In this document: piece after piece, positions 4,508-61,150 of the stretch
Numbering within the stretch: position 1 is the first letter of the stretch
Layout of the letters: every line of letters starts with the position of its first letter
Assembly: GCA_041908065.1 (NCBI GenBank)
Contig: JAYRGC010000050.1
Location: 21,718-85,717, forward strand
Length of the DNA stretch: 64,000 nucleotides
Direction of reading: 5' to 3'
Source of the DNA: Alphaproteobacteria bacterium
GTDB taxonomy: Bacteria; Pseudomonadota; Alphaproteobacteria; UBA9219
Program-made: the position numbers and the translations under genes
The notes under the pieces: generated by a model
Told to the model about the DNA's origin: nothing
What the model saw: the letters and a program-made list of their open reading frames with translations, nothing else
Database searches by the model: none

Positions 4508-4529
4508 GCGTTCCTCATGGGTCTTCGAG

Positions 4530-24218: not shown

Positions 24219-24421
24219 CCTACACCACAGCCCAACGCGATGCGCTGAAACAGGCCATCGCGAGCGGCGTCCTGCGTCTCTCTTACGACGGCAAGACGGT
24301 CGAGTATCGCAGCATGTCCGAACTAAAGGCGGCGTTGGCTGAAGTCGAACAAGGCTTGGCGCGAGACAACGGCCAGCCGCAAACGCGGCAGATCAAGATT
24401 TACGCCGACAAGGATCTCTGA
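24215..24421 (+). CDS. Head-tail joining protein, gpW-like
   Basis: 68-aa protein between terminase and portal, the same position as lambda W. Confidence 0.5.
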   Translation: MTYTTAQRDALKQAIASGVLRLSYDGKTVEYRSMSELKAALAEVEQGLARDNGQPQTRQIKIYADKDL

Positions 24422-43819: not shown

Positions 43820-44058
43820 TGTTTGCCATCCTCACAAGCTGGCTGTCCAGCAACATGCTCAAAATCATCGGTTGGGGAGCGATTGCCGCGTCAGTAGCCG
43901 CCGTCCTCTTCGGTGCGCGCCAGTCAGGTCGTACCGCCGAACGCTACGACCAACTTAAGAAAATCGTGGAGGTGAAAAATGCTCAGTTACGCGCAGCAAT
44001 GGACGCTCCTCGCACTCGCGCTGACCTTGTTAAGCGCCTGCGGGACGGCAAGTTCTAA
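43819..44058 (+). CDS. i-spanin (Rz-like)
   Basis: N-terminal TM (MFAILTSWLSSNMLKIIGWGAIAASVAAVLF) then coiled coil; ATGA-coupled to the endolysin; o-spanin gene embedded in its 3' end. Confidence 0.6.
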   Translation: MFAILTSWLSSNMLKIIGWGAIAASVAAVLFGARQSGRTAERYDQLKKIVEVKNAQLRAAMDAPRTRADLVKRLRDGKF

Positions 44059-44212
44059 CCCCGCCTGCGTCTGCCCGCCGATCAAGGCGTACAGCAAGGA
44101 ACAACAGATCAAGCTGGCCGTCGAGATCGAAGCCGCGCCGCCCGATGCGACGTTTCCGAATGTTGTGCAAGACTACGCCGTGCTGCGCGCGCAACTGCGC
44201 GAGTGCAAATGA
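43979..44212 (+). CDS. o-spanin (Rz1-like outer-membrane lipoprotein), embedded/overlapping
   Basis: Lipobox LLSAC at residues 17-21, Cys- and Pro-rich mature part; overlaps the Rz 3' end in another frame. Confidence 0.6.
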   Translation: MLSYAQQWTLLALALTLLSACGTASSNPACVCPPIKAYSKEQQIKLAVEIEAAPPDATFPNVVQDYAVLRAQLRECK

Positions 44213-44421
44213 TCGAGACGAAGGGGAAGGCGTTGAGATTGCTTGGGACACTTGAGCCGGAGGGGTGAGCAGTCGCCCCCACATCATTTTTCCTGTCAGG
44301 CCGCCCGCGATGAAACGCCGGAGGCTTTTTCTTTGACCAAAACCACAGGATATGGCATTGCGATCACAGAAAACCTTTAAAGTAGTGCAAGCTTTTATCC
44401 AGTGAAGGGGCACGGTAGCAA

Positions 44422-44727
44422 ATGAGCAACGTCATTGAAGGCTGTTTCGGCCCCAAGAAAACTCTGCGAATGAAGGCAGTGGCCTATCAACGCGACCTTA
44501 AGACAACGGCAAATCTCGGCTATGAAGAAAAGTTTGCTTCGCTTCTCGATCTGTGCGACGAGGCAGCATCCGGCGCATTTGATGTGGTGATTATCGCTTA
44601 TCCCGAAATCCTTGGTGACTCCGAGGAGGAGATCATCCGCAACCTGTCGCTGTTGTCGGATGCGGGACTGCTTCTGGTCGTCGCGCAGAAAAGCCCGCGC
44701 CTCATTGAGGCAGCGAATGTGCCGTAA
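44422..44727 (+). pseudogene. Degenerate serine recombinase (resolvase) N-terminal domain remnant
   Basis: MKAVAYQRDLKTT... resembles the resolvase start MKAVAYLRVSTxxQ but lacks the catalytic Ser and the HTH domain. Confidence 0.4.
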
Positions 44728-44735
44728 ATGACGAC

Positions 44736-45033
44736 TTCAGGCTAACGATCGAAAAACACCTCAACGCCGGAGCCGAACAATGGATCGGCATTTTCGTGGC
44801 CGAAGGTAAGAATCTGCGCTCCTCGCACTCGCACTCGCGCTGATCTCGTTAAGCGCCTGCGTAACGGCAAATTCTAATCCCGCCTATGTCTGCCCGCCAA
44901 TCAAGGAATATAGCAGGGAGTTTTAGGAGAGGCTTGCGGCAGAGGTTGAATCCGCACCTGAAGGTTCAGCGTATCCTGAAGCGCTTATGGATTACGGCGT
45001 CCTTCGAAATCAGGTGTCATTATGTCAGTAAGT
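44736..45033 (+). pseudogene. Decayed remnants: C-terminal fragment of a fourth paralog (44736-44841) fused to a degenerate copy of the Rz-3'/Rz1 region (44815-45033)
   Basis: FRLTIEKHLNAGAEQWIGIFVAEGKNL matches the paralog C-terminus; the next ~210 bp are ~75% identical (by eye) to 43995-44212 with an in-frame TAG. Confidence 0.55.
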
Positions 45034-45046
45034 GCAGCTATCTACG

Positions 45047-45658
45047 CTATGGTTCGCAAAGAGTACCGTTTTTGAAAGTCCGCACATTTTTTCTTTCAAA
45101 GAGACTCTCTACTCGTTGGATGGCTGCTAGGATGCTCGTCGTTTTGCTCTGAATCGTTTGCGTGACTAGGTGGTTGTCACCGTATCGTGAAATGATCTCG
45201 TCAAGACGCTCCTGAGCGCTGAGGTTTTGGCCCTCTGGCCCTGTGGTCATATCAGAAAACAGAAGTGCATCAGATGCATTAGAGCCTTCATTCGGAAAGG
45301 CGCTGAGACACTGTTCGAATCCGCGCAATTCGGCCTCGGAAGCTGCACAGGAATGATGTGCGACAAGTGCCGTAACACGATCCTCAAACCCTTCCTCCAA
45401 AAGCCATCGCGCCCCATCCAAGGGATGAAATTGGGTTTTGGCTATGTCTGGAGCGTATCCTATGTCATGAAGCCACGCGGCTACAGTCAAAACTCGAGCC
45501 TCGTCGGCATCGAATAAAATGGCCCCGATCTTTTCGGCTTTTGCCGCTACCGCTTGGACATGAAGCCAGCGTTTTGGCAACGGGGTCTCCAAATGATCTC
45601 GTGCAATCCGCCGAGCCTCCTCTACAGAACACACCTTTCGACTGCCTTTTTGCATCAT
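45047..45658 (-). CDS. HD-domain metal-dependent phosphohydrolase/oxygenase-family protein
   Basis: H...HD...H...H...D pattern (WLHVQAV, WLHDIGY, ALVAHHS); start uncertain (45658/45655/45721). Confidence 0.55.
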   Translation of the reverse strand: MMQKGSRKVCSVEEARRIARDHLETPLPKRWLHVQAVAAKAEKIGAILFDADEARVLTVAAWLHDIGYAPDIAKTQFHPLDGARWLLEEGFEDRVTALVAHHSCAASEAELRGFEQCLSAFPNEGSNASDALLFSDMTTGPEGQNLSAQERLDEIISRYGDNHLVTQTIQSKTTSILAAIQRVESLFERKNVRTFKNGTLCEP

Positions 45659-45683
45659 TTTCTCATTTACTCGCGCCCATGAA

Positions 45684-46340
45684 CTAATGGGATGCATCAG
45701 ACGCATACTTGTAATCGACAATCCAGTAGTAGGAAAGACGTTTAATGTTTATATCCGTTGCGATTCCTTTGAGTATATCCTTGAACTCCTGATCGCTCGG
45801 GAAATTTTTAAGAACCTCATGCTCGCTTCCGTCTGGCAGCTTGCGGGTTTGGTATGTATTGCCGCCGTCATCTGTTCTGGTGATGGGGTGGTTGCTGCCC
45901 TCAACATAGTGGTTGTCTATGAAAACGACTGTGGCTCCATGTTCCAGCTTCGAATGAAAAACATCTAAGAAACTTTTTATCTTTGCCCTTGGAATATGTG
46001 ACCACCAAAACCCAGCAAATCCCGCCGTGAATTTTCCGGAAACCTTTGAAAGCGAGTACGCGTCTTCTTGCATGAATCGTGCATTGGGCAGGTTCTTCTC
46101 TTGGGCGATTTCTAGAACTTCTGCGCTTTGATCTGTGCCCAAGATGGATGCAGCCGTTTTTGCACGCTCTGTCCAGTAACCGGTTCCGCAAGCGATTTCT
46201 AATACGTCATGCCCATTCAAGATTTTTTGTAACTCAAGGGAAAGATTTGCAAGATCCTCTTGTCTTTCCGGCTTTTCGTAGATTTTTTCATAAACTCGTG
46301 CGCGGCGGTTGTAATATTCCTTCAGGGCTTCATCGTTCAT
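45684..46340 (-). CDS. Class I SAM-dependent methyltransferase
   Basis: Motif I VLEIACGTGYWT, motif post-I ILGTDQS, motif II ARFMQEDA. Confidence 0.7.
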   Translation of the reverse strand: MNDEALKEYYNRRARVYEKIYEKPERQEDLANLSLELQKILNGHDVLEIACGTGYWTERAKTAASILGTDQSAEVLEIAQEKNLPNARFMQEDAYSLSKVSGKFTAGFAGFWWSHIPRAKIKSFLDVFHSKLEHGATVVFIDNHYVEGSNHPITRTDDGGNTYQTRKLPDGSEHEVLKNFPSDQEFKDILKGIATDINIKRLSYYWIVDYKYASDASH

Positions 46341-46379
46341 TTTTCATCTCCTTTTGCGGGGCAGGGTTTGAGCACTTTA

Positions 46380-47813
46380 TCACCCAAACCATAAAACAGA
46401 TACCGTTTTAACATTCGTATAAAAGCGCATAGCTTCTACCAATCCTTCTTTGTGACCCAATCCTGATCCCTTAACCCCGCCGAATGGCGACATTTCCGTA
46501 CGAAAACTAGGCACTTCTCCAATGTTGACGGATCCAACACGCAGTCTTTTGATGAATTGTAAGGCAGATGGCCAATGGCTCGTGCACACACCGGCGCTCA
46601 ACCCGAACTCCGTTCCATTGACGATACGTATCGCATCTTCGTTGGTCTTGAAACGAATTATGGGAGCAACCGGACCAAACGTTTCTTCTGCGACGAGGGT
46701 GCTTGCAGGAGAGACATGGTCAAGCACCGTCGGGTGATATAAGGCTCCTTGTCTTTTGTGTCCCAAAAGAAGTTTGGCACCATCCTTAATGGCTCCATCG
46801 ACCCTTTTTTCAATTTGGCGAGCGGAATTCTCGTCTATTACCGTTCCGACATCTGTTTCTTTATTGGAGGGATCTCCGCAAACTAGCTTTGCCGCACGTC
46901 CTACAACCTTGTTAACGAAATCATCTGCTTTTTCTTCTGCCACTAAAATCCGTTTTATGGCTGTACAACGTTGTCCAGAGTTTCCAAACGCGCCGCGCAC
47001 AGCAAGGTCGGCAGATTCATCTAAATTGGCGTCGGGAAGAACAATAAGCGCATCATTGCCTCCCAATTCAAAAAGGAGCTTTTTATACGAGGCTTTCTGG
47101 GCCAGAATCTTGCCTACAGCGGTGCTTCCTGTAAAAGCCAAGACTTCTACGTCTTTGCTCTGCACAAGTTCATCGGCCATTTCAACGGCTGGACCTGTCA
47201 CTACTGACAACATTTCCGGAGGTAGGCCGGATTCATGAAGTATCTTTGCAAAGCGATATGCGGAAAGCGGGGTTTTTTCCGACGGTTTCAAAATTACACA
47301 ATTATTCGTCGCAACGCCGGGAGCAACTTTATGTGCAACCTGACAAAGGGGATGATTGAAAGGAGTTATTACCCCAATAGATGTGACGGGTTCACGGAAG
47401 GTTAGAATTTTTCTTGTCTTCCCGTCACGATTGACATCTCCTGCATAAATATCTGCATCTTCCTGCAGACATAAAGCACTCGCAAAAGTCAAAACGTCCT
47501 GTGCGCGACAAACTTCGTTCTTTGCATCCTTCCAGCAAAGTCCCGTTTCAGCGATAACCAATTGGGCCAGATCTTCTGCGCAATCTTCCATTAATTGAGC
47601 CGCTTTTGAAAGAATTCGGCTGCGTTCGTGACGTGTTAATCCGGCCTCATAGTTTGCGGCAACATCGATAGCCTTCTGTATTTGCTCACGAGAAGCGGAA
47701 GAAACTTCCCCAGTTAACCCCTTTGTAAAGGGGTTATAGACGGATATGCGGTCAGTCGTTTCAATCTGATTGCCGCCAATAAGCAACGGTTCATAGTATG
47801 ATTGGTTCACCAT
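46380..47813 (-). CDS. NAD(P)-dependent aldehyde dehydrogenase (candidate phosphonoacetaldehyde dehydrogenase, PhnY-like)
   Basis: Catalytic Cys context GQRCTAIKRILV and Glu FELGGNDA; ATG MVNQ preceded by AAGGAG (the ORF-track M upstream is TTG). Confidence 0.7.
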   Translation of the reverse strand: MVNQSYYEPLLIGGNQIETTDRISVYNPFTKGLTGEVSSASREQIQKAIDVAANYEAGLTRHERSRILSKAAQLMEDCAEDLAQLVIAETGLCWKDAKNEVCRAQDVLTFASALCLQEDADIYAGDVNRDGKTRKILTFREPVTSIGVITPFNHPLCQVAHKVAPGVATNNCVILKPSEKTPLSAYRFAKILHESGLPPEMLSVVTGPAVEMADELVQSKDVEVLAFTGSTAVGKILAQKASYKKLLFELGGNDALIVLPDANLDESADLAVRGAFGNSGQRCTAIKRILVAEEKADDFVNKVVGRAAKLVCGDPSNKETDVGTVIDENSARQIEKRVDGAIKDGAKLLLGHKRQGALYHPTVLDHVSPASTLVAEETFGPVAPIIRFKTNEDAIRIVNGTEFGLSAGVCTSHWPSALQFIKRLRVGSVNIGEVPSFRTEMSPFGGVKGSGLGHKEGLVEAMRFYTNVKTVSVLWFG

Positions 47814-47838
47814 TTCGATCTCCTTAAAAATCAATTAC

Positions 47839-48999
47839 TCATTCGCCACCAGTACCTGAAGGACATTCGAGTTTGTTTGTTCTTATTGCTGCCTTCAAAG
47901 GTCGTTTTGCCGCATAGGCTGTAAGTGCTTCATCTACAAAACCATGAAGTTGAGCAAGCCCATGATTAGAGTGGACATCAATGCCATGTAATCCGACTTT
48001 TTTATGCAGTCTCTCGATGCCTGACTCGAGATTGCAAACCGGTCCACAAACTATTGGCGTGGTGTATCCCCACTCTTTAAGAAAATGCATTGCACCAAAC
48101 GCCCCCAAAGCATCATTTGCCGAAAGAACAACGAGGGCAACATTTTGCCGAAACTCAGGTTTTATTAAAGCTTCTGGTATGCCCGCCCAAATGATATCTC
48201 CTCCGGCCTCTGCCACAACGACATCTGTGTCTAGAGATGCGGCCCGTATTACGTCGACGGCTACATTTCCGGCTCTATTTGAATCGCCATAAGTTGAAGG
48301 CAGGCCCATATCAACAAAATCAACTGCGCGGATGGCTCCGCCATCTTTTAAGTGTGCAATGTCACGCAGCCGACCGGTTCCGCTGATTTTTGCAGCGCCA
48401 ACCCGATGGAATTTCGATAGGTGTTCTATTATTCGGCGAGTAACCGTGGTCTTGCCGCATTCTGAAGACGTTCCAACAACCATGACAACGGGGGAGATCA
48501 AGTCAGCCTTGGCCTTTGAATTCAACTGGAGCAAATTCATATTCTTGCCGTTCTCATTTAGGATGCCCAACAGTCTTACACGAGCAGCCGGAATGGGCTG
48601 AACCTTGGCTGCAGCATTGCGGCTGTAAGAAGGATATGAGGTGCAGATCCCGACTCCTCCAGCATTTGCCAAAATATCGGCTTCACCCGGAATAGCGAGG
48701 CCTCCCTCTGGGACATGCCCGACGAGAGACACACCAGAATCTCTGTGGCAAACCGTTCCGATGAATCTTTCGCCCTTTTTCAAATCGTGCAGACTGACAT
48801 CCGAGCGTTCAATGGCTGTAATAGCCCCCTTTTCAGACAGCATTTCTGCAACTACTAAATCGCCTTCGTTGGCCTTACCCTCAACTAAAGAAGCTGCCTT
48901 AACGCGGGCAACTGCTTCTTGGCTCCGAAGGTTTGAAGGAAAAACATCAATTTTAATATCCGCCACGCGAACGTCTTTTTTAGAAATGTCATTTTGCAT
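47839..48999 (-). CDS. Uncharacterized P-loop NTPase (DUF1611/CobQ-BioD-like fold)
   Basis: Walker A VVGTSSECGKTTV at mid-protein; start ATG MQND after AGGAAA. Confidence 0.4.
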   Translation of the reverse strand: MQNDISKKDVRVADIKIDVFPSNLRSQEAVARVKAASLVEGKANEGDLVVAEMLSEKGAITAIERSDVSLHDLKKGERFIGTVCHRDSGVSLVGHVPEGGLAIPGEADILANAGGVGICTSYPSYSRNAAAKVQPIPAARVRLLGILNENGKNMNLLQLNSKAKADLISPVVMVVGTSSECGKTTVTRRIIEHLSKFHRVGAAKISGTGRLRDIAHLKDGGAIRAVDFVDMGLPSTYGDSNRAGNVAVDVIRAASLDTDVVVAEAGGDIIWAGIPEALIKPEFRQNVALVVLSANDALGAFGAMHFLKEWGYTTPIVCGPVCNLESGIERLHKKVGLHGIDVHSNHGLAQLHGFVDEALTAYAAKRPLKAAIRTNKLECPSGTGGE

Positions 49000-49025
49000 A
49001 AGTTCTTTTCCTTTCAACAGTTGTA

Positions 49026-50057
49026 CTATCCCACATCAAATGTGCCGATTTTCTTGGGTCTAAACCATCTTACGGGTCTGAAGCTTTTCTCCAGTTCATG
49101 GTCCACACCAAGAATCAAGGAGAACAGAGCCATCCTGATAAGCAAGCCATTGTCGGTTTGCTTGAAAATTACCAGTCTGGGATCCCCATTAAGGTCCGTG
49201 CTTAAATCATATGCATCGGACCTGCTGTCGCGTGGCAAAGGATGCATGATGACCACGTCATCTTTTGCGTACGCCTGCACGATGTTTTGCTTAATTTGGT
49301 GATTTGGCCTCAGGCTTGTGATTAGATTTTGCTCTTCAAGCCGTTCTTTTTGAAGCCTAGTTGCGTAAATAACATCTGCAACCTTAAGCCCCTCCTCAAG
49401 AGTCCCCGCCTCGGTAAAGGAGTGTCCAAATTTAGATGCATATTTGATGACTTCTTGTGGAAGGCCAAAATGTTCGGGATGAACAAGAACGTATTTTATG
49501 TCCTTGTATAGGCACATAAGATAAACAAGCGAGTGAACAGTGCGGCCATACTTCAGATCGCCGGTAAGAGCGATTGTCGAGCCATCAACAGGTTTTCCTC
49601 TTTTTTCGAGTTCCTCTTGAAGCGTGTAAACATCCAGCAGTGCCTGCGTCGGATGCTCTTCAGGCCCACTCCCTCCATTGATAACGGGAATGTTTGTGGC
49701 ACTGCAAAATTCCTTTATTGCAGCCGGATCTGGGTGACGGATCAGGATGATATCGTAAAATCCACTCGTTACCCGACTCGTGTCAAAATAAGATTCTCCC
49801 TTAACAATTGAGGTAATGCCTTCTCCTTGAGTGTGGGACACGGCTCCACCGAGACGCATGAAGGCCGCATCGAAACTCAACCGCGTTCTTGTGCTGGGTT
49901 CAAAGAACATGCTGCCCAGCACGGCTCCGCGCAAAATGTCTGTGCAGACATCTCCCGTCGCTATAGGCTTAACGAGTTTGGCAAGTCTGAACAATTCGTC
50001 CAAATCTTCTCTGTCGACGCTTTTTACCGAAAGAAAATGTTTGCCTAAGAATCCCAT
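49026..50057 (-). CDS. Aspartate/ornithine carbamoyltransferase-family protein (ATCase/OTCase fold) with C-terminal extension
   Basis: Carbamoyl-phosphate-binding STRTR (FFEPSTRTRLSF), HPTQ (HPTQALLD), HPLP (IMHPLPR) motifs. Confidence 0.65.
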   Translation of the reverse strand: MGFLGKHFLSVKSVDREDLDELFRLAKLVKPIATGDVCTDILRGAVLGSMFFEPSTRTRLSFDAAFMRLGGAVSHTQGEGITSIVKGESYFDTSRVTSGFYDIILIRHPDPAAIKEFCSATNIPVINGGSGPEEHPTQALLDVYTLQEELEKRGKPVDGSTIALTGDLKYGRTVHSLVYLMCLYKDIKYVLVHPEHFGLPQEVIKYASKFGHSFTEAGTLEEGLKVADVIYATRLQKERLEEQNLITSLRPNHQIKQNIVQAYAKDDVVIMHPLPRDSRSDAYDLSTDLNGDPRLVIFKQTDNGLLIRMALFSLILGVDHELEKSFRPVRWFRPKKIGTFDVG

Positions 50058-50070
50058 GGTCAGCTCCGTT

Positions 50071-51225
50071 TCAAGGCGTGAATTTCGAGCTAAAGGATAC
50101 CATGTGTTCCCTAAACATTAAAGCGCGCTCAGGGAGATCAAGTTTTGGCCTTTCCACAACCTTTATGGTTAACGGTGCGATCCTAATATGTAAAAAATTA
50201 GGGCCGTCAAAAGGATCAATTGAATGCAGCGCTTCTTTTACAGCTTCTTTGCCAGAGCAAGACCAAACAGAACGATAGCCGCAAGAGAGGGCAACGCCGG
50301 AGAAATCCACCGCATTCGCATTGCTGGGTTGTCCACCAGTTGACTCGAAGATGCCGTTATCGAGCACGACATGGGTAAGATTGCGGGGGGACATTTTCCC
50401 GATGGTTGCGCAGTTTCCCATTTTCATGAGCAATGCGCCGTCACCGTCTAACACGGTGACGGGGTGTGCGCAGTTCATCGCGACGCCCAATCCAATTGCC
50501 GAAGCGTGCCCCATTGAACCAGCCATATAAAAATTGTTGGCCTTATCATGGCATTTGTATGCTTCACGATACGCATAACCGGTCGTCGCAATGACTGCGT
50601 GATTGCTAAACTCCTCCATGATTTGGGCTATGGTAGAGGCTCTATCTCCAATAGGCCCAGCAGTTACGCGTTTCACCGTTGGTCTTTCTCCCGAGGAAAT
50701 TAGAGAGGGCATTGTGCTCTGCGTTTTCGCATTCTCGATAGTCTTGGGATTTATCAAAAACGCTCGGCTATTCCTGTCGGCGAGTTCCTGTTTTGCGCAT
50801 CTCATCTCAGCAAGAGCATCTAGCCATTCACATGGCAGAACGGTTGTTTTAACTCCAAGTAGCTCCAAGAGCGGGCCGGAAGTTCTTCCCATAATCTCGT
50901 GCTGGGCCTCATCCTTAAATCCAACTGCGCCGCGCATAGAGATAAATAATGACACGGGTATCTGGTAGGGTTGGCAAAGAGACGCTATAGGATTCACCAT
51001 GTTTCCAAGACCTGAATTTTGACAAATCACTCCTGCTTGTTTTCCGGCCAGCCAGTATCCGGCAGCAATTGCACAAGCTTCTCCTTCCGTGGTTGCCGGT
51101 ATGTACCGAAGTAAATCTGTCGTTTCCAGATCTTTAAAAACAGACGACAAATTGGAACATGGCACTCCAATCAGAGCAGCATGATTCTGAGCTACCACTT
51201 CGATGAAATCCTCCGATTTGATCAT
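50071..51225 (-). CDS. ppd: Phosphonopyruvate decarboxylase (TPP-dependent)
   Basis: ~384 aa, TPP-enzyme pyrimidine- and PP-binding halves, ATGA-overlapped with the PEP mutase gene as in ppm-ppd cassettes. Confidence 0.6.
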   Translation of the reverse strand: MIKSEDFIEVVAQNHAALIGVPCSNLSSVFKDLETTDLLRYIPATTEGEACAIAAGYWLAGKQAGVICQNSGLGNMVNPIASLCQPYQIPVSLFISMRGAVGFKDEAQHEIMGRTSGPLLELLGVKTTVLPCEWLDALAEMRCAKQELADRNSRAFLINPKTIENAKTQSTMPSLISSGERPTVKRVTAGPIGDRASTIAQIMEEFSNHAVIATTGYAYREAYKCHDKANNFYMAGSMGHASAIGLGVAMNCAHPVTVLDGDGALLMKMGNCATIGKMSPRNLTHVVLDNGIFESTGGQPSNANAVDFSGVALSCGYRSVWSCSGKEAVKEALHSIDPFDGPNFLHIRIAPLTIKVVERPKLDLPERALMFREHMVSFSSKFTP

Positions 51226-52106
51226 GGCATTAGTTCCTTTGGTTTTTGTTGTCTGTTGTATTTTCTTTCCTCTGATGGCAGTAAATCCATGCCAGTGAGG
51301 GACAGCACTTCCTTGACGGTTACCATGTTTGAAACACCGCGTGGATCTTGTTGTTCAAGTAACTCTCTTGACGCATTTTTTAAGGCCAAGATTTGCGCAC
51401 GCAGAAGCTGATTGGCCCATATGATACCTTTGACGCTTTTCAATCGCGGAATAACAGGAGCGATAGAGCTATAGTAAGTCGTGGGGACAATCACGATAGG
51501 ATTTGGTTTATCCCAGTCTTCTATAAAACGAACGATATCAGACGCTTCTTTAGATTTCGAGTGAATCAGAATTGCGTCGGCACCTGCTTCTGCATAAAGA
51601 TTGGCGCGTTCTTTAGCTACATCAAGGCCTTGTCCTACGATTAAAGCCTCAACCCTGGCGACAAGAAACATGTCGTTTCCGAGCGCATCTTTTATGGCCC
51701 GTATCTTTCCGCAGAAAGTTTCCTTGTCTTCGAGCTCTTGACCTGCGGACATGAGAGAGTTTCTCTTCGGAAAAACCTGATCCTCAATGGATATGCCTGA
51801 GGCCCCAGCTTTGAAAAGTTTCTTGGCAAAGAACCGAGCAATATTGAAATCGCCATGCCCATTATCTCCATCGACAAGGATAGCGGCTTGTGTTGCGGAG
51901 GCGATGTTCTCTGTCGCAGCGACGACCTCGGCCCAAGACAATTCTCCAAAATCACGACGTCCTTGAACGGTGCTTAATCCCAGGCTTGAGACCCAAATGG
52001 AATCAAAGCCAGCCTGTTCTGCGACTATAGCCGACAGCGCATCATGGCATCCAATAATGTATGTCGGGGCCGTATTCGACAACTGCGTTCTCAATAAATT
52101 TGTCAT
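51222..52106 (-). CDS. ppm: Phosphoenolpyruvate phosphomutase (ICL/PEPM superfamily)
   Basis: WVSSLGLS, ILVDGDNGHG (DxD), and IEDQVFPKRNS spacing E-x5-K-x-N-S as in PEPM active site rather than ICL KRCGH; AAGGAGG RBS. Confidence 0.7.
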   Translation of the reverse strand: MTNLLRTQLSNTAPTYIIGCHDALSAIVAEQAGFDSIWVSSLGLSTVQGRRDFGELSWAEVVAATENIASATQAAILVDGDNGHGDFNIARFFAKKLFKAGASGISIEDQVFPKRNSLMSAGQELEDKETFCGKIRAIKDALGNDMFLVARVEALIVGQGLDVAKERANLYAEAGADAILIHSKSKEASDIVRFIEDWDKPNPIVIVPTTYYSSIAPVIPRLKSVKGIIWANQLLRAQILALKNASRELLEQQDPRGVSNMVTVKEVLSLTGMDLLPSEERKYNRQQKPKELMP

Positions 52107-52146
52107 TTTATCCTCCTTAAAATTAACGATTCAGATTTTGTTACAC

Positions 52147-52920
52147 TTAACCGAACATGGGGTTTGAAAACGTGAGGCATCGTCCTGCGGACAACCTCCC
52201 ACAAAGCTCCCCCAATGATCCCCCTTTATTGGCAGCAGACAAAAACGATGGAAGGCCTGCTACGACAACATCCACAAATGGATATCCGGTTCTCTCTCTT
52301 TTGTTGTCTACGATAAGCGCTGTCCACATCCCACATTTTTTGGAATAAAAAAGGTTTTCAGGCGTATCATCGACCATGATTGTTCTGGCAGCAGAGGCCT
52401 TCATCTGAGACAGCACATATGTAAAGGGGGCGATGGAATCTGATTTCCTTTGGAACCCAATTTCTTCCAATGTGAAAATAGATTCGTCTGGAAAATAGTT
52501 TTTGATACCAAGCGTGTTGAGAACCCGTGTTGCCCAAGACCTGTTTCCGTGAGTAAGCATCGCGCACGGAATGTTGAGGGTAGAGAATAGAGCAGGAAGA
52601 TCGCCCCTGCTTAAAACATTCTCTTCCTGCAAGCGATTGTGATAAGAGCGATGTAGCTCAGTCAGCGAAATGCCGCATGCTGTGAATGCCTCGTAATACG
52701 TTTTATGCTTTTTACGCGAGGCAAGAGCCATTTGTCTTGCTTGTTTTTCAGTCAGCAACGGGACAAGATCCATAGCTACTTGTGTCGCCACGCTAAAACA
52801 ATGATTTTGAAAGACAGGCGTGTCTTCAAACATGACTCCATCGTTGTCGAAAACGATTAGGTCTATCTTCTTGCTTGTACAAGAAGAACTGTTCTTAGAA
52901 ATTTCGTTCGACTGCATCAT
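52147..52920 (-). CDS. HAD-superfamily hydrolase/phosphatase
   Basis: Motif I LIVFDNDGVM (DxDG), first gene of the operon after an AT-rich promoter region. Confidence 0.6.
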   Translation of the reverse strand: MMQSNEISKNSSSCTSKKIDLIVFDNDGVMFEDTPVFQNHCFSVATQVAMDLVPLLTEKQARQMALASRKKHKTYYEAFTACGISLTELHRSYHNRLQEENVLSRGDLPALFSTLNIPCAMLTHGNRSWATRVLNTLGIKNYFPDESIFTLEEIGFQRKSDSIAPFTYVLSQMKASAARTIMVDDTPENLFYSKKCGMWTALIVDNKRERTGYPFVDVVVAGLPSFLSAANKGGSLGELCGRLSAGRCLTFSNPMFG

Positions 52921-53154
52921 TTACCCTCCAGTAGCACCAAGGTTATCTCAAACAGACAGCTTATCCAACAAACAATCATAGTTAACAGTTTGATTTATAA
53001 TCAATTATCGCCCTTTTGGGTTTTGGATTTTTGCCGAAAACCACCATATTGAGTATCTAAACTCGTTTTTTTCCATCAAGTTGTTCCTTTTCGCCATTCT
53101 CCGTCTATTTTTTCGTACCTTCCCAATTTAGGAAGGTGACTCCGTTTTCTTCCA

Positions 53155-53667
53155 CTACAGCAATGACCGGCTGTTATATTTTTCCCGCCCCACCTTCGCC
53201 GTTTCATCGTGTTCGTTTCTGATCTCTTCTGAAACCAGAACGCGATGGGCTGCCTCAACCAGCGAACGGACAAGGTTGCTCTGTCCGCCGGACGTTCTGA
53301 AAAATGTTTCCTTGCTCATGAAGCGGCGGTTTTGACATTGCTCCGGCCATGTGGCTGCTTCGCCTGCCATGCGTCCAACAAAAACGATTGTTTGCGCGAT
53401 TTCGTTCTGCCGACCCTTGGTCTTGATGGCCGTGACGGGCTTCACGAGGCCGAGGGCGATGTTTGCGCTCTCGAAAACCTCGCGCCGCGCTGCGGCCTCG
53501 GCATCGTCGTCGTCCCATTCCACACATCCGCCAGGAAGGACAAAGCGGTTTTTGTTCTTGATCGCCAGCACGCAATTTTGATCGTCGAAAACAACGATTT
53601 TGACGTATTCGATTTCCTCTGCGTTCAGCGATTGCTCGGGAACAAAACAAGGATTTGTGTTAAGCAT
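53155..53667 (-). CDS. NUDIX hydrolase
   Basis: Nudix box GGCVEWDDDDAEAAARREVFESANI; GGGAGG RBS before ATG MLNTN. Confidence 0.7.
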   Translation of the reverse strand: MLNTNPCFVPEQSLNAEEIEYVKIVVFDDQNCVLAIKNKNRFVLPGGCVEWDDDDAEAAARREVFESANIALGLVKPVTAIKTKGRQNEIAQTIVFVGRMAGEAATWPEQCQNRRFMSKETFFRTSGGQSNLVRSLVEAAHRVLVSEEIRNEHDETAKVGREKYNSRSLL

Positions 53668-53932
53668 AACGCGCCTCCCGTTCATAATAGGAGCCGATGC
53701 CGTTCTCTCTGCACCGAAGCTCAATGACGGCCAGCGCATTGGCGAAGTGCCAAAGGGCAGCTACATCCTGATGGGCAAAGCCCAAGGCAAGAAGGTCTTG
53801 CTGCTCGCAGTTGCCGATCTCCAGTGTCATCTCAACGATTGTGTCAGCCATGCGAGCCACCGGTTCAAATCTCTTATCCGTTTCAGAGGTGATCTGATCG
53901 ACGATGCGGCGGTATTTGATTGCTTTAGCCAC
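53660..53932 (-). CDS. Hypothetical protein
   Basis: Overlap-coupled ORF within a minus-strand operon. Confidence 0.35.
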   Translation of the reverse strand: MAKAIKYRRIVDQITSETDKRFEPVARMADTIVEMTLEIGNCEQQDLLALGFAHQDVAALWHFANALAVIELRCRENGIGSYYEREARYA

Positions 53933-54332
53933 GGGGCGCCTCCCTGATTTCAGGGATGGAAGCCATTACGCGAACAACGCCTGTGTACGAAAGAGCCAAC
54001 GTATGACCGGTCGGGTCGCAACCGGCAGGGATCGTAATGGCCGTCTCATAACGGACAAACTGGATGCCTCGACGGGCAAAGGTCGTAACAAGCGTCTCCA
54101 TTGTCGATTTTTGCGGGATGTATACTCCGTGCTCGATGTTTTTGATCGTTTCCGCAGATATCTTTGCTTCTTTGGCAAGATCGCTACGTGACCAATCGAG
54201 CATGCTGCGCGCGGCACGCAGTTGCGAGGCCGTGAAAACGCAGGACATGATCGCGTACATGGGGCCGGACGGCGTACCGACGTCAGAATTGTTTTTGGCG
54301 TTCGTCGGATCAAAAGGCGGCTTGGAAATCAT
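53925..54332 (-). CDS. XRE-family HTH transcriptional regulator
   Basis: TASQLRAARSMLDWSRSDLAKEAKISAETIKNIEHG; GGGAGGA RBS, ATGA coupling to the upstream gene. Confidence 0.6.
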   Translation of the reverse strand: MISKPPFDPTNAKNNSDVGTPSGPMYAIMSCVFTASQLRAARSMLDWSRSDLAKEAKISAETIKNIEHGVYIPQKSTMETLVTTFARRGIQFVRYETAITIPAGCDPTGHTLALSYTGVVRVMASIPEIREAPRG

Positions 54333-54763
54333 TGGTATCCTCCCGCTTTTCTGTCCTCAATTTCCTCATCGAGATAACGCAGCACCAGATCGGCCAGTTT
54401 CTCTACTGAAGCTTCCGCATAGAACAGCCATTGTTTCCGACGCACCTTGCGCTGCTGGAGGCGGTCATAAAACTGGATGAGTGTTTCCCGATCTTCGGGC
54501 AAATGCGTCTGTTCACGCTTTTGCAAATCTTCGATGTGCATGTTGATCGCGGCGTCGATCTTCGTTGCCCACTTGTCTTCAGCAAGATCGATGGTCTGCT
54601 CAGGAAATGTTCGCTGAAGGTGAAAATCGCAAAACTCGTCCATGAGTCTGGCGAGGGCGATTATTTTATTAACGGACTCCTTCGATCTTCCGTTCTCGCC
54701 GTGCGTAATCATGCTCTGAAACGCCAGCATGAGGGCCATGCGCATTTGTTCGTCTTTAGTCAT
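54329..54763 (-). CDS. Hypothetical protein
   Basis: GGAGG RBS before ATG MTKDEQ. Confidence 0.4.
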   Translation of the reverse strand: MTKDEQMRMALMLAFQSMITHGENGRSKESVNKIIALARLMDEFCDFHLQRTFPEQTIDLAEDKWATKIDAAINMHIEDLQKREQTHLPEDRETLIQFYDRLQQRKVRRKQWLFYAEASVEKLADLVLRYLDEEIEDRKAGGYQ

Positions 54764-55052
54764 GACAGCCTCCGATAACCAAGGCCTGTGGCCAGAAGCG
54801 CGACAACAAACGCGCAAATCGCTCAATCGTATTCAATTCGCGTGTGGAAGGCTGAGGGAGCGGGGAATTGGCGAGATAAAGGAAAGTGATCCCATGCATC
54901 TTGACGGCCTGCGTAAACGCATCGCGCTCGGTATCAGATGCGAAATTGTCTTGAATGATCTCAAGGACAGTGGCCTCTGAACATTCTGGACGGGCCATCA
55001 GTGCCTGCGCCTTGGCGAGAGGCAATGCGATTGCTGTGTTGTCGTTCGTCAT
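54756..55052 (-). CDS. Hypothetical protein (start uncertain)
   Basis: ORF continuing the operon; weak RBS. Confidence 0.25.
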   Translation of the reverse strand: MTNDNTAIALPLAKAQALMARPECSEATVLEIIQDNFASDTERDAFTQAVKMHGITFLYLANSPLPQPSTRELNTIERFARLLSRFWPQALVIGGCHD

Positions 55053-55099
55053 AAAATGCTCACTGATGTCGTTGATCAATGAGGCGAGTATCAATATCT

Positions 55100-55215
55100 C
55101 CAACGCGTGATTCCACAGGAGAATTTGGACTTTTTGCCCATATTCAGGGGGGCAATTTGGACGAATTTCTAATTTGGACTTTTTGATCAAAATTTTGGAC
55201 TTTTTTCCTGATAAA
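55100..55215. promoter_or_regulatory. Four direct repeats of (A)ATTTGGAC(T)TTTT in an AT-rich intergenic region
   Basis: aatttggactttttg / caatttggacgaattt / taatttggactttttg / aaattttggactttttt. Confidence 0.5.
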
Positions 55216-55465
55216 AAATAGGCTGGCGGCGTGACCGCATGAAAGAATAGGCGATGATCGTTTGAAACGGCAATTTCAGAGAGAACACTCAACACGACAA
55301 AAAGCAATCGCCGTTTTTATCAGGCGATCCCTTTTTTCTTGGCACTTTTAATCAGATGAAAAGATGTGTGGGAGGATAGCGCGATATCCGATTGGTTCTT
55401 GGCAGCTCCATGCCTTGACAGGTACAGGCAAAACCGAGGTGCTTTAACTGCACAGAAAAGGCGGT

Positions 55466-56236
55466 TCAGTAGCAAGCCTGCCGTTCTGGTTCGTTGCAGC
55501 CATCCAGCTGTGGCATCCGATGGCTGAAATTCGGCGAAGCCCTTTTTGCGGTAGATGTCGTATATGGTTTGGCTTCAAGCCACCGTTTCTCGAAGTGTTC
55601 GAACGTCTTTTTCACCAGTTTAGGCGACTCGAATACCACGTAGACCGGTTGGCGAAAATTGAAGCGCATGTCTTGCTCTATGGCGAAAGTGACTTCATCG
55701 CCATAGGCAAAGTCGCAGGAGACACAGTTGACGGGCGGTTCGTGATACACCCTGACTTCGAAAGAAGGGCCTCTCGGAAGATATATGTTCTGATCCGCCA
55801 GCAGGCACTTTACAGAGACGACTTTGCTAAGGTTTTGCAGGCGGTCGAAATTCGTCAATCCATTCCGCCCCGTGACCTTCGTTAACATGCCTTGGCTTCC
55901 GATCCTGCACACAACACCTGAAGCTTTGTCCTTGAGCATCTTTTCGATGTTGTCGAAAAAGCGGTCGCAGCTGCCAAGCCCACGGAAATCCTTAACGCCA
56001 TCTGAGCGCGGTCTGACGCTGCCGTCCGGCAGGCATTCGACGCCATGAGCGTCAAAGACGCTTTGTATGTCCAGGATGATGGACTCGCGAACGGGCGCAT
56101 CGTCTTCGAATGTGCAAATGGTACCGCGCGCGACATTCGCTTCGTGTGCCAGCTTTTCACGAGACCACTTCAACAATGATCTCGCCATTCTGCTTTGTGC
56201 GCCTGTTATGAGATAAACTTCGGTCATGGTTGTCAT
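55466..56236 (-). CDS. XRE-like HTH domain protein with ~180-aa C-terminal domain (paralog of 57355-58035)
   Basis: N-terminal ITGAQSRMARSLLKWSREKLAHEANVARGTI; C-terminal region alignable to the 57355 protein. Confidence 0.55.
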   Translation of the reverse strand: MTTMTEVYLITGAQSRMARSLLKWSREKLAHEANVARGTICTFEDDAPVRESIILDIQSVFDAHGVECLPDGSVRPRSDGVKDFRGLGSCDRFFDNIEKMLKDKASGVVCRIGSQGMLTKVTGRNGLTNFDRLQNLSKVVSVKCLLADQNIYLPRGPSFEVRVYHEPPVNCVSCDFAYGDEVTFAIEQDMRFNFRQPVYVVFESPKLVKKTFEHFEKRWLEAKPYTTSTAKRASPNFSHRMPQLDGCNEPERQACY

Positions 56237-56241
56237 TCGCC

Positions 56242-56535
56242 TTAGTTAATTTGTTCTTGCGGGTTTAGGTCGACCAAATAGCGTATGGCGGCATCGTAAT
56301 GTCGACGTTGGATGTTGCAGACATCATTCACGCCGAAATGACTGGCAAGCATAGACAGAACCACTTCGTCGCTAACTTTGTGCGTGTGCGCGACATAGGC
56401 GACCACGGCGGCAATCGATATTAATTCCCGCTTCGCAAGCGAGGCTTCGATCTTAGCCTGTTCCGCGAAGTATTCTTCCGCTGGCTTGGCTTCTTCGATG
56501 GCCTTGCGAATAAGTTGCATGCGATCTGTCGACAT
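56242..56535 (-). CDS. Small conserved protein, member A of a second triplicated family
   Basis: ELISIAAVVAYVAHTHKVSDEVVLSMLASHFGVNDV...AIRYLVDL aligns with 56557-56889 and 59055-59345. Confidence 0.55.
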   Translation of the reverse strand: MSTDRMQLIRKAIEEAKPAEEYFAEQAKIEASLAKRELISIAAVVAYVAHTHKVSDEVVLSMLASHFGVNDVCNIQRRHYDAAIRYLVDLNPQEQIN

Positions 56536-56556
56536 GGAGAAATGGCTCCTTAAAAA

Positions 56557-56889
56557 TCAGTTCATAATGTTGCTTATCTTCAAATCGACCAGATACTCGA
56601 TGGCGTTCTGGTAAAGCCGCGCAGGCAGAGCCTTCACTTTGTCAATGCCGTAATGGGCGGTCAGAATCTCGCAGACGGTCGTTTCATCCACTTGCTGGTT
56701 ATAGGCTACATAGGCGATCATCCCCGCTAGAGCCTTAAGCTCGATATCGTTGACGAGGGCTTCGTGAGCCTTGCGCAGTGCGACAAGACCGGATGTCAAA
56801 AGGCGCAGGTCGCCGGAAGAAAGGTCTTTGCCTTCCGTGGCCTCGTTGAAGGCCTCTTCGGCGGGGTTCATGGGCTGGGGCTTGTTCAT
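56557..56889 (-). CDS. Small conserved protein, member B of the second triplicated family
   Basis: ELKALAGMIAYVAYNQQVDETTVCEILTAHYGIDKV...AIEYLVDL. Confidence 0.55.
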   Translation of the reverse strand: MNKPQPMNPAEEAFNEATEGKDLSSGDLRLLTSGLVALRKAHEALVNDIELKALAGMIAYVAYNQQVDETTVCEILTAHYGIDKVKALPARLYQNAIEYLVDLKISNIMN

Positions 56890-56901
56890 GTCGCTTGCTC
56901 C

Positions 56902-57144
56902 TTAAACCGTGGCCGTCGGGGCGGGCGAAGGGCAAACAACGGCTTGATAGTCGTTGGTGGCCTTAATAAAGTGCTCCCAGCGTTCTTCGAGCATCATGGG
57001 GCGGGGGTGCTTGACACTGTTATAGCGTTCCCAAGTGTCCACAATCTGCTGGATCAGGCTTTCGCTGTGTTTTTTGGTAATCGTGTCAAAATCGAGCATT
57101 AATCCCTCCCTTTGAAAAACCTTACAAAAAGCCTGTTTGGCCAC
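56902..57144 (-). CDS. Hypothetical protein
   Basis: 80-aa ORF upstream in the same operon. Confidence 0.35.
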   Translation of the reverse strand: MAKQAFCKVFQREGLMLDFDTITKKHSESLIQQIVDTWERYNSVKHPRPMMLEERWEHFIKATNDYQAVVCPSPAPTATV

Positions 57145-57354
57145 CTGATTTTGAAACCGTAACGGATTTTGGGCTTGAAAGCAATTAAAATCTACTGGGT
57201 AGGCAAAGAATATCTACATGAAAGCATTATTTTGGTTGAAATTGTTATGAAACATACTTAGAGTTGGTTTGAAACGCACTTTTAGCGAAAAAACTTTAAG
57301 CTTTTTATTAACCAAAAGTCGTGTATAGTATCAGAAAACATCTACGGAGTAGCA

Positions 57355-58035
57355 TTGCAAATGATTACAGCGAGACAAATTCGAGCGGCTAGAGGCCTTT
57401 TGGGATGGGACGCCGTGGTTCTTGCCCGAAAAACAGGGCTGACCAAGGAAACAATCTCGCGGATTGAGATAGAACAAGTGCGCCCGCAAGAGCGTACATT
57501 ACTCAAGATTCTGCGTGTTTTCAACGAGGCGGGTGTAGAGTTCACCCCCAATACAGGCGTGCAACTTAAGCCGCAAAATGTCGAGGTTCTCGAGGGAACA
57601 ACGGGGTTCCTTCGTTTTTATGATTTCGTTTATAACCACTTAAACCAGTACGGGGGCCTCGTTTGCGTGAGCGGCGTCAACGAAAAGTTGTTCGTCAAAT
57701 ATCAAGGTGACTTTGCAGACGTTCATATGAACAGAATGGCAGATCTAGTTAAACGCCGCGAAGATCTTATGATGCGAATTTTGGTAGAAGAAGGCGATTA
57801 TAATTTCGTAGCGTCCTCATACGCTCAATACAGGTGGCAAGCTAAAGCGTATTTTTCTCCTGCCCCCTTCTATGTTTTTGGAGATAACCTTGCTCTCATC
57901 TCTTTCGCGCATGAGCCGTCGCCATTAGTTATTTTTATCAAGTCAGCAAGTTTAGCAGACGCTTACCGGCACGCTTTCGAACTTGCTTGGGCGCAATCTA
58001 TTGAGCCGCCGTCGAGAGAGGAGAGCGCGAAATGA
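57355..58035 (+). CDS. XRE-like HTH regulator with C-terminal domain, translationally coupled to the EgtD-like methyltransferase
   Basis: ITARQIRAARGLLGWDAVVLARKTGLTKETISRIE; 4-nt overlap with the next gene. Confidence 0.6.
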   Translation: MQMITARQIRAARGLLGWDAVVLARKTGLTKETISRIEIEQVRPQERTLLKILRVFNEAGVEFTPNTGVQLKPQNVEVLEGTTGFLRFYDFVYNHLNQYGGLVCVSGVNEKLFVKYQGDFADVHMNRMADLVKRREDLMMRILVEEGDYNFVASSYAQYRWQAKAYFSPAPFYVFGDNLALISFAHEPSPLVIFIKSASLADAYRHAFELAWAQSIEPPSREESAK

Positions 58036-59051: not shown

Positions 59052-59054
59052 AAC

Positions 59055-59345
59055 TTAGTGCTTCGCCGCCGCGCTTGATCCAGCAAGGCCGATGAGAAAA
59101 TTCATGACGGTCTCGAAGTCTTTGGCCGGCAGATAACGTAAATCGCTAACGCCGAAGACCCTTTGTGTGATCTCGAGGATTTCCGCTACGTCTGTCTTCA
59201 TTTCATGGGCGGCGTAGAATACGAGAGCGGTGAGTTTCTGTGCCTCTCTGAAGTTCAGCGCTCTGGAAAGGTCGTCGTCTCCACAGGGAGCAGCCTTCAG
59301 TTTGAAGGGGAGAACGTTTGAGGCAGTATCTTCGCTCATGGTCAA
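59055..59345 (-). CDS. Small conserved protein, member C of the second triplicated family
   Basis: EAQKLTALVFYAAHEMKTDVAEILEITQRVFGVSDL...VMNFLIGL. Confidence 0.5.
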   Translation of the reverse strand: MTMSEDTASNVLPFKLKAAPCGDDDLSRALNFREAQKLTALVFYAAHEMKTDVAEILEITQRVFGVSDLRYLPAKDFETVMNFLIGLAGSSAAAKH

Positions 59346-59457
59346 AATCCTTTTCTTAAAAGCCCCTAAAGCAATGCCCTATTATATCGTTAACGCAGCC
59401 CAAATTCAAAAGAATGCAGCGGTAAAAATCAGGCAAAACTTGATAAATGGTACGATT

Positions 59458-60957: not shown

Positions 60958-61150
60958 GCTTTCCTGTCTCAGCTTGTGTCCTCGATCTCGCGCCGTTTTT
61001 TGGAAGCACTGTGGAAGCAAGAGGCTTCAAAACGGGGCGAAAACCTGATAGGCTCATGAAGCTGAAAAGGCCGCCGGAAGTCAACTAACGTATTGAAATA
61101 TCGTAGTAAATAGAAACGCTTCGCAATCCTTCAAAAACGGTTATATTGGG

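Follow-up and report, generated by a model that had tools for sequence, protein, structure and literature searches.

Introduction

The closest described counterparts of the gene considered here are copies of a target enzyme encoded within the biosynthetic gene cluster (BGC) of its inhibitor. ArgK, the phaseolotoxin-resistant ornithine carbamoyltransferase (OTCase) of the Pht/argK-tox cluster of Pseudomonas syringae pv. phaseolicola, is one of them, and its resistance has reportedly been shown experimentally. It is a transcarbamylase-fold target copy, and its toxin is a transition-state-like phosphorus-containing inhibitor. The other is the lumazine synthase resistance gene of the Burkholderia flavophos phosphonate BGC, an experimentally tested extra copy of the target of the product, which follows the same target-copy logic with another target and another chemistry (2-phosphonomethylmalate route, BKACE-like enzyme) (PMC12871164). 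Here we describe an aspartate carbamoyltransferase (ATCase) homologue encoded within a phosphonate operon of an Alphaproteobacteria bacterium, in a stretch of 64,000 nucleotides (hereafter the window; GenBank assembly GCA_041908065.1, contig JAYRGC010000050.1, positions 21,718 to 85,717), and, drawing on these two precedents, propose that it may confer immunity as a target copy. Unlike the window enzyme, ArgK is an OTCase, and the toxin that it withstands is not a C-P compound but a sulfodiaminophosphinyl peptide; for the window, we infer both the product and the resistance.

Since the 1970s, N-phosphonoacetyl-L-aspartate (PALA) has served as the textbook example of a transition-state-type inhibitor of ATCase, and it entered anticancer trials. 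It is the classic bisubstrate inhibitor of this enzyme, and to our knowledge it is regarded as purely synthetic. Its acyl half is phosphonoacetate, the predicted product of the early steps of the window cluster, and its amine half is aspartate, the substrate of the operon-encoded enzyme. We give about an even chance to a reading with two parts: the product of the cluster is PALA itself or a relative of it bearing a methyl or hydroxyl group, and the ATCase serves for self-resistance, as a copy of the target. The methyltransferase of the cluster and the TauD-type dioxygenase present in some of its versions imply that the real product may be a modified relative of PALA.

Phosphonoacetate itself is known from the PhnW-PhnY-PhnA route of 2-aminoethylphosphonate (2-AEP) catabolism and from two biosynthetic routes, those of fosfazinomycin (FzmG, FzmB) and O-phosphonoacetic acid serine. 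With the catabolic route the window shares PhnY-type oxidation of phosphonoacetaldehyde, and with fosfazinomycin an S-adenosylmethionine (SAM)-dependent methyltransferase nearby. Unlike the catabolic route, however, the window has neither PhnW nor PhnA, and its direction would be biosynthetic because a phosphoenolpyruvate (PEP) phosphomutase (PepM) and a phosphonopyruvate decarboxylase (Ppd) are present. An ATCase and a P-loop protein resembling dethiobiotin synthetase (DTBS), both encoded in the window, are not known to occur in any of these pathways. In the searchable literature, with subscription journals covered in part, we found no report that PALA occurs naturally, that a PepM cluster contains an ATCase or that the cultured carriers described below produce a phosphonate. 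An earlier note made from the sequence of the window had likewise been aware of no characterised function of this kind, and no association of an ATCase with a phosphonate cluster was found in that literature.

A complete aspartate carbamoyltransferase by residue content

The gene in question is the following.

49026-50057, minus strand: ATCase homologue of the PRK08192/PRK11891-like clade, 343 aa (Pfam, TIGR00670 and residue alignment)

It is an open reading frame running from ATG to stop; a plus-strand reading of the same interval was ruled out, that frame being riddled with stop codons. Both domains of the OTCace_N + OTCace architecture are present, namely OTCace_N (PF02729) at aa 6-148 (E 4e-40) and OTCace (PF00185) at aa 158-314 (E 1e-23), and the protein exceeds the cut-off of the ATCase equivalog model TIGR00670 (EC 2.1.3.2; 278 bits against 236.95). 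Its top NCBIfam scores were obtained with NF008853/PRK11891 (437.5 bits) and NF006046/PRK08192 (411.5 bits), under the curated cut-offs of both (560 and 512, respectively). The NCBIfam models for OTCase, PTCase, AOTCase/SOTCase and YgeW stayed at 38-143 bits, where the cut-offs are 280-560, and neither the SMG nor the HCLP motif of other transcarbamylases was found in the protein. The best PDB matches were all ATCases, led by plant PYRB (6ypo, E 4e-68) and followed by archaeal enzymes, human CAD and the E. coli enzyme.

The protein was aligned with PyrB from the E. coli K-12 genome, and the numbering of the latter is used for individual residues. The two share the same two-domain fold. The earlier note had reported that the STRTR, HPTQ and HPLP motifs are retained and that the carbamoyl-phosphate half is intact, and the alignment agrees: the motifs lie at aa 55-59, 135-138 and 272-275, and all the carbamoyl-phosphate-binding residues (S52, T53, R54, T55, R105, H134, Q137, P266 and L267) are identical. 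It had further taken the second-substrate region to be diverged, whereas every aspartate-binding residue of E. coli PyrB is conserved, including R167, R229 and Q231, the neighbouring-chain residues S80 and K84, and also T168. R167 and T168 sit in GDLKYGRTVHS (aa 166-176), and R229 and Q231 in TRLQKER (aa 233-239). Judged by its residue content, the gene is predicted to encode a catalytically complete ATCase, which adds a new member to an enzyme family already known.

Compared with E. coli PyrB, the window ATCase is 36% identical, carries a 5-aa insertion after HPLPR (with DSRSDAYD at aa 277-284) and runs about 25 aa past the C-terminus (tail SFRPVRWFRPKK... at aa 325-343). It also differs in context, lying in a phosphonate operon on a mobile island with no pyrI, pyrC' or other pyr gene nearby. 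On the question of whether it groups with canonical PyrB, which by the earlier note would count against its proposal, the model score and the catalytic residues speak for such a grouping, and its membership of a sister clade does not. The C-terminal extension to which that note drew attention is real, but is not a divergence tied to the phosphonate context: both the insertion and the extension, in which a Trp and a Pro are conserved, align with the PRK08192/PRK11891-like clade, stand-alone genes included. We therefore rejected the tail and the insertion as phosphonate-specific adaptations, since they are clade-wide and yet missing from the cluster-linked ATCases of the Clostridia and of the candidate phyla radiation (CPR). 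A change of Asn to Tyr or Phe in 'DSRPGAND', within the same insertion, was also considered as a cluster signature and set aside as unspecific, Asn being kept in 94 of 120 homologues and varying in the other 26.

Members of the PRK08192/PRK11891 clade (proteins of 348 and 430 aa from Acidovorax, Collimonas, Bordetella and Comamonas) are 50-60% identical to the window ATCase and, unlike it, are stand-alone genes without phosphonate neighbours in the cases examined. The nearest relatives, P0002 (60%), P0003 (57%) and the 430-aa Acidovorax protein P0033 (50%), all stand alone in unrelated contexts, P0002 next to hydrogenase maturation genes. A stand-alone 430-aa ATCase with an N-terminal extension of about 85 aa is found in many Betaproteobacteria (Acidovorax locus L011, 8001-9293; P0014-P0119), and no experimental study of this 430-aa clade was found in the searchable literature. 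A metagenome scan with the ATCase returned 3 distant matches only.

The operon and its predicted route to phosphonoacetate

In agreement with the earlier note, the ATCase gene is embedded in a phosphonate biosynthetic operon, with Ppd as its upstream neighbour, PepM further upstream and a PhnY-like aldehyde dehydrogenase (ALDH) downstream. The other seven genes of the operon, in order of transcription, are as follows.

52147-52920, minus strand: HAD-family phosphatase, first gene of the operon (Pfam Hydrolase and HAD_2)
51222-52106, minus strand: PepM, formation of the C-P bond (Pfam PEP_mutase, E 3e-47)
50071-51225, minus strand: Ppd (TIGR03297, 337.5 bits, above the cut-off of 312.5)
47839-49017, minus strand: DTBS/DUF1611-like SIMIBI P-loop enzyme, 392 aa (no Pfam or NCBIfam family)
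46380-47834, minus strand: PhnY-like phosphonoacetaldehyde dehydrogenase (TIGR03250 and PDB match)
45684-46340, minus strand: SAM-dependent methyltransferase (Pfam Methyltransf_25/11)
45047-45721, minus strand: HD-domain phosphohydrolase, last gene of the operon (Pfam HD)

The eight genes are tightly packed on the minus strand in the order HAD, PepM, Ppd, ATCase, P-loop enzyme, ALDH, methyltransferase and HD protein, separated by 40, -4, 13, 8, 4, 39 and -38 nt. The ATCase gene is thus the fourth, spaced 13 nt from Ppd and 8 nt from the P-loop gene, and the start of Ppd overlaps the stop of PepM by 4 nt. A promoter-like site precedes the operon (53004-52975, minus strand), such sites being no commoner here than in shuffled sequences.

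For PepM, the best NCBIfam match was TIGR02320, at 257 bits under a cut-off of 320, and the best PDB match was the Mytilus PepM (1m1b). The ALDH scored 621 bits with TIGR03250, just below the cut-off of 636 and far over all other ALDH models; its sole PDB match below E 1e-100 was 4i3t, which we take to be Sinorhizobium meliloti PhnY. PepM, Ppd and PhnY catalyse the successive steps from PEP to phosphonopyruvate, phosphonoacetaldehyde and phosphonoacetate. By homology, the window PepM, Ppd and PhnY-like ALDH are predicted to lead from PEP to phosphonoacetate, and neither an aminotransferase nor PhnA (phosphonoacetate hydrolase) is encoded in the operon. This bears on the aminophosphonate acceptor that the earlier note had suggested for the ATCase: the operon has no aminotransferase, and the PhnY-like ALDH leads to phosphonoacetate, not to 2-AEP. 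The methyltransferase, homologues of which accompany the P-loop enzyme in many loci, may O-methylate the phosphonate or the carboxylate.

The P-loop enzyme has a SIMIBI P-loop fold with equivalents of the DTBS motif GTxxExGKT and of the catalytic Lys37 and Glu115. In a profile alignment with E. coli BioD, GTSSECGKT pairs with GTDTEVGKT, K210 with K37 and E270 with E115, at an hhalign probability of 17%, which is weak statistical support. C-N bond formation at an activated carbonyl is common to all the enzymes in its structural neighbourhood, in several cases via an acyl or carbamoyl phosphate, and because of this shared chemistry the P-loop enzyme may act as an ATP-dependent ligase joining the carboxylate of phosphonoacetate to an amine. 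The DTBS/DUF1611-like family to which it belongs comprises more than 850 sequence clusters; no report of its function was found in the searchable literature, and no relative was found among viral contigs.

Recurrence of the ATCase with the P-loop enzyme

A scan of 185,579 species genomes with a three-sequence alignment of the P-loop protein as query yielded 80 loci, which were profiled with the window proteins. They split into about 45 alphaproteobacterial loci without PepM, which hold the P-loop gene and a related methyltransferase, and about 20 phosphonate-linked loci. The ATCase lies beside or near the P-loop gene in 8 distant lineages, including the window, and PepM and Ppd are in the locus in 7 of these 8.

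The gene order varies among these lineages. In a metagenome-assembled genome (MAG) labelled Bdellovibrionales, six of the genes (PepM, Ppd, ATCase, P-loop, ALDH, methyltransferase) are arranged as in the window, and the ATCase is 57% identical to that of the window. The order is PepM, Ppd, ATCase, P-loop and ALDH in a Clostridia MAG, and His_Phos_1, HAD, ATCase, P-loop, PepM, Ppd and ALDH in a Saccharibacteria MAG (locus L025), where a HAD gene precedes the ATCase, as in the window. In Nocardia tenerifensis and a Thermoanaerobaculia MAG, the ATCase is within a few kb of the P-loop gene. A Daviesbacteria MAG has M20, P-loop, ATCase and His_Phos_1, with no PepM or Ppd within 7-10 kb. Pseudomonas fluorescens EK007-RG4 and Pseudomonas sp. 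RIT288 share the order PepM, Ppd, P-loop, TauE exporter, ALDH, ATCase, TauD-type dioxygenase and methyltransferase; the coordinates in the former are given below.

L018, 7820-16259: cluster of P. fluorescens EK007-RG4, including the TauE exporter and the TauD-type dioxygenase

The ATCase directly adjoins the P-loop gene in 5 lineages (window, Bdellovibrionales, Clostridia, Saccharibacteria and Daviesbacteria). In all 9 cluster-linked ATCase loci the catalytic set is kept, with a conservative T53S or T55S in 3 of them. In a neighbour-joining tree, the cluster-linked ATCases are polyphyletic: they fall in at least 3 places inside the PRK08192/PRK11891 clade (window with Bdellovibrionales; Pseudomonas; Nocardia with Thermoanaerobaculia, each in a separate part) and 3 outside it; the Clostridia and CPR enzymes are those outside, and have neither insertion nor tail. 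The ATCase thus looks, from the tree, to have been recruited repeatedly to these clusters.

The ATCase is also an accessory component. Of the clusters that are otherwise equivalent (PepM, Ppd, ALDH and P-loop), about half have no ATCase within 10 kb, and none was found in 6 of them with well-covered flanks (L016, L020, L021, L024, Nocardia colli and Nocardia sp. CA-128927). Over a stretch from about 1.3 to 16.0 kb, the last two match N. tenerifensis collinearly, with 84% identity; just beyond this block, the ATCase of N. tenerifensis starts at a place taken by a Na+/H+ exchanger in the other two. Further genes of the Nocardia clusters encode two ATP-grasp L-amino-acid ligases, an S9 peptidase, a class I/II aminotransferase and an MFS transporter.

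Directly upstream of the P-loop gene, mostly in clusters without an ATCase, lies a gene for an M20/M28-family amidohydrolase:

L016, 3419-4627: M20/M28 amidohydrolase
L014, 1808-3007: M20/M28 amidohydrolase
L015, 29-1228: M20/M28 amidohydrolase
L021, 6365-7504: M20/M28 amidohydrolase
L022, 6228-7403: M20/M28 amidohydrolase

M20 enzymes hydrolyse N-acyl amino acids, and the amidohydrolase could provide an alternative self-protection or a step of pro-drug maturation. A strict alternation of ATCase and M20 as immunity devices was considered and found to be only approximate, L022 having both and L020, L024, L042 and L058 neither.

The alphaproteobacterial loci with the P-loop gene and neither PepM nor ATCase come from Bradyrhizobium, Acetobacteraceae, Xanthobacteraceae and Beijerinckiaceae. 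In about half of them, the P-loop gene is convergently paired with a methyltransferase homologous to that of the window; the pair forms a conserved two-gene module, whose neighbourhood in Bradyrhizobium was uninformative. Loci with the P-loop gene and no PepM include L023, L027, L031, L034, L040, L051, L062, L067-L069, L071, L074, L078, L080-L082, L086 and L087.

One cluster without an ATCase (PepM, split Ppd, methyltransferase and P-loop, on the 6.2-kb contig L008) has a GTP cyclohydrolase II gene beside PepM (5430-6173, minus strand); this is the cluster of P0122 (36% identical). This gene could be another housekeeping-type target copy, in this case from the riboflavin pathway.

A proposed PALA-type product and the ATCase as a possible self-resistance copy

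In the mechanism that we propose, PepM, Ppd and the PhnY-like ALDH would supply phosphonoacetate, and the DTBS/DUF1611-like P-loop enzyme would activate its carboxylate with ATP and couple it to an amine. The most economical amine would be L-aspartate, giving PALA or a methylated or hydroxylated relative. The ATCase would be an extra, possibly less sensitive copy of the inhibited enzyme, co-expressed with the pathway to keep pyrimidine synthesis going. In this mechanism, we infer which amine is joined to phosphonoacetate, what the product is and that the ATCase protects. This proposal draws on the combination of a phosphonoacetate pathway, a ligase-like enzyme, an exporter in some versions, and an intact ATCase that has been repeatedly recruited and is dispensable, a combination that resembles the usual signature of a BGC carrying the target of its product. 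The ATCase gene is inside the operon, co-oriented with the biosynthetic genes and in conserved synteny, and its distribution is that of an accessory gene, present in 8 lineages and missing from the 6 well-flanked clusters, including two of the three collinear Nocardia. Furthermore, the TauE exporter in Pseudomonas and the MFS transporter and amino-acid ligases in Nocardia are as expected for a secreted antimetabolite, and the location on a mobile island is a further hallmark of a bioactive product. Housekeeping pyrB-pyrC' genes are expected in the Pseudomonas carriers. Taken as a system, this would be target-copy immunity in a phosphonate cluster, with a presumed target in pyrimidine biosynthesis and a presumed ligase family that has not been described.

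Several observations weigh on the other side. The product is putative, and the amine partner of phosphonoacetate is pure conjecture. The window PepM motif, GISIEDQVFPKRNSL, has EDQ-x5-NS in place of the diagnostic EDK-x5-NS; Gln replaces Lys in the Bdellovibrionales PepM as well and Asn does so in the Thermoanaerobaculia copy, while EDK is retained elsewhere among the related clusters. The alignment of the cluster-linked ATCases shows no change in the active site that would weaken the binding of PALA, and protection would have to come from dosage or subtle changes, or the compound would be one other than PALA. The direct adjacency of the ATCase and P-loop genes in 5 lineages, and their pairing without PepM or Ppd in Daviesbacteria, look more like an enzymatic partnership than immunity. 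Moreover, CPR bacteria often have no de novo pyrimidine synthesis, and the extra copy would have nothing to protect there. Finally, the proposal presumes a second, housekeeping pyrB in the host of the window, of which 64 kb are in view.

If the proposal holds, nature has reached the same inhibitor design as PALA, with a built-in ATCase immunity gene on a widespread mobile cluster, and pyrimidine biosynthesis would be a new target among phosphonate antibiotics. The uncharacterised DTBS/DUF1611-like family would gain a function, and target-directed genome mining would gain a resistance marker. The proposal is directly testable in the cultured carriers, P. fluorescens EK007-RG4, Pseudomonas sp. 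RIT288 and N. tenerifensis. The first of these is a biocontrol strain that antagonises a broad range of bacteria, Erwinia amylovora among them, an activity that its genome papers credit to a lipopeptide with no mention of a phosphonate (PMC5374223). We regard this broad antibacterial activity as unexplained.

Alternative explanations

Among the alternatives, the one that survives best, though we consider it unlikely, is that the ATCase-fold enzyme itself forms the amide. In this case, the P-loop enzyme would make phosphonoacetyl phosphate, or the methyltransferase methyl phosphonoacetate, and the ATCase would transfer the acyl group to L-aspartate, yielding PALA. The chemistry fits: in the ATCase reaction, the amino group of aspartate attacks an acyl phosphate. 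Intermediates with a phosphorylated carbonyl are indeed formed by DTBS-type enzymes, and O-methylation of the phosphonoacetate carboxylate has a precedent in FzmB of fosfazinomycin biosynthesis. The two genes are direct neighbours in 5 loci despite the different lineages of their ATCases, and Daviesbacteria keeps the pair without PepM. However, about half of the equivalent clusters, including two of the three collinear Nocardia, do without an ATCase, which is therefore dispensable for the core chemistry, and the approximately 45 alphaproteobacterial loci keep the P-loop gene, many of them with the methyltransferase, and have no ATCase. DTBS, CTP synthase and formyltetrahydrofolate synthetase (FTHFS) finish the C-N bond themselves. 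The residues around the carbamoyl NH2 (Q137, P266 and L267) are unchanged, with no remodelling of the pocket for a dianionic CH2-PO3 group or a methoxy leaving group, and the synthase would be inhibited at nanomolar concentrations by PALA, its own product. The earlier note had suggested a phosphonate analogue as a possible substitute for carbamoyl phosphate; this idea is retained solely within the present minority explanation, with phosphonoacetyl phosphate as the acyl donor. We rate the explanation as slightly less probable still in its specific form, in which PALA or a close relative is a natural product whose amide is formed by the ATCase-fold protein from phosphonoacetyl phosphate supplied by a P-loop kinase. 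If the ATCase did act in biosynthesis, it would be without known precedent among transcarbamylase-fold enzymes in taking an acyl donor other than a carbamoyl one in a natural pathway; an enzyme would then build the transition-state analogue of the reaction of its own family, on an element moving between phyla.

That the gene is an ordinary pyrB paralogue, hitch-hiking on a mobile island or boosting the pyrimidine supply with no specific link to phosphonates, is improbable. In favour of such a passenger, the protein is a complete ATCase whose closest relatives stand alone in unrelated contexts, and islands carry miscellaneous cargo. Yet the gene sits in the middle of an operon between gaps of 13 and 8 nt, and the association recurs in 8 distant lineages with varied gene orders and ATCase lineages, which is not expected by chance.

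Least probable of all, and in our view very much so, is a tailoring step in which carbamoyl phosphate, whose site is intact, would serve to carbamoylate an aminophosphonate (2-AEP, aminomethylphosphonate or, more plausibly, phosphonoalanine, which is isosteric with aspartate and could fit the unchanged aspartate pocket; phosphonopyruvate arises in the pathway, and a class I/II aminotransferase is present in the larger Nocardia version), given that there is no aminotransferase in the window, Bdellovibrionales, Pseudomonas, Clostridia and Saccharibacteria versions, that Ppd and the PhnY-like ALDH drain phosphonopyruvate to phosphonoacetate, that R167, R229 and Q231, which hold the two aspartate carboxylates, are invariant and exclude monocarboxylate-free amines such as AEP, and that the models for transcarbamylases with other acceptors (OTC, PTC, AOTC and YgeW) score far below their cut-offs, with SMG and HCLP missing.

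Accessory genes and the mobile island

Outside the core enzymes lie the first and last genes of the operon. The HAD protein is weakly similar to pyrimidine 5'-nucleotidases (TIGR01993, 54 bits, below the cut-off), and the HD gene is not kept in other versions of the cluster. A further hydrolase gene lies upstream of the operon.

53155-53739, minus strand: Nudix hydrolase, of uncertain operon membership, 234 nt upstream of the operon (Pfam NUDIX)

Three nucleotide-hydrolase-type genes (HAD, Nudix and HD) thus flank the core in the window version only, and His_Phos_1 and HAD phosphatases stand in their place in the CPR versions. A pathway with a phosphorylated or nucleotide-linked intermediate is possible. 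No PADLOC defence family was found, save for a generic methyltransferase domain match.

The ATCase operon lies on a horizontally acquired, integrase-bearing island, the features of which are listed here.

44400-59400: low-GC genomic island of about 15 kb bearing the cluster (48% GC against 59% in the rest of the window)
57355-58035, plus strand: HTH_3 regulator, accessory gene of the island
58032-59051, plus strand: Methyltransf_33 protein (EgtD-like histidine methyltransferase family), accessory gene of the island
59458-61020, minus strand: tyrosine integrase at the edge of the island (Pfam Phage_integrase, Arm-DNA-bind_3 and Phage_int_SAM_3)

The flank on the integrase side consists of the tyrosine integrase, host genes and tRNA-Pro. 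MutL, with at most 64% identity to its best named relatives, points to an uncultured alphaproteobacterium as the host. The integrase, Methyltransf_33, HTH_3 and the phosphonate operon also occur together in the Bdellovibrionales locus (L006, with Methyltransf_33/HTH_3 at 3635-5223). Because the operon adjoins the same three genes again in that lineage, the whole element appears to be mobile.

On its other side, the low-GC island is directly abutted by a prophage (18300-44100) with the following genes.

19703-20926: ParB/CcrM-like methylase
22329-24218: terminase large subunit gpA
24421-25959: lambda-type portal
36493-39696: Rcc01698-like tail protein

The island may be phage cargo (a moron) or a separate integrative element. 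A search for att sites revealed no repeats flanking the island, only a local direct repeat of 131 nt at the junction of prophage and island (44009-44139 and 44828-44958; 77% identity, 819 nt apart). This repeat may be the remnant of an integration or recombination event.

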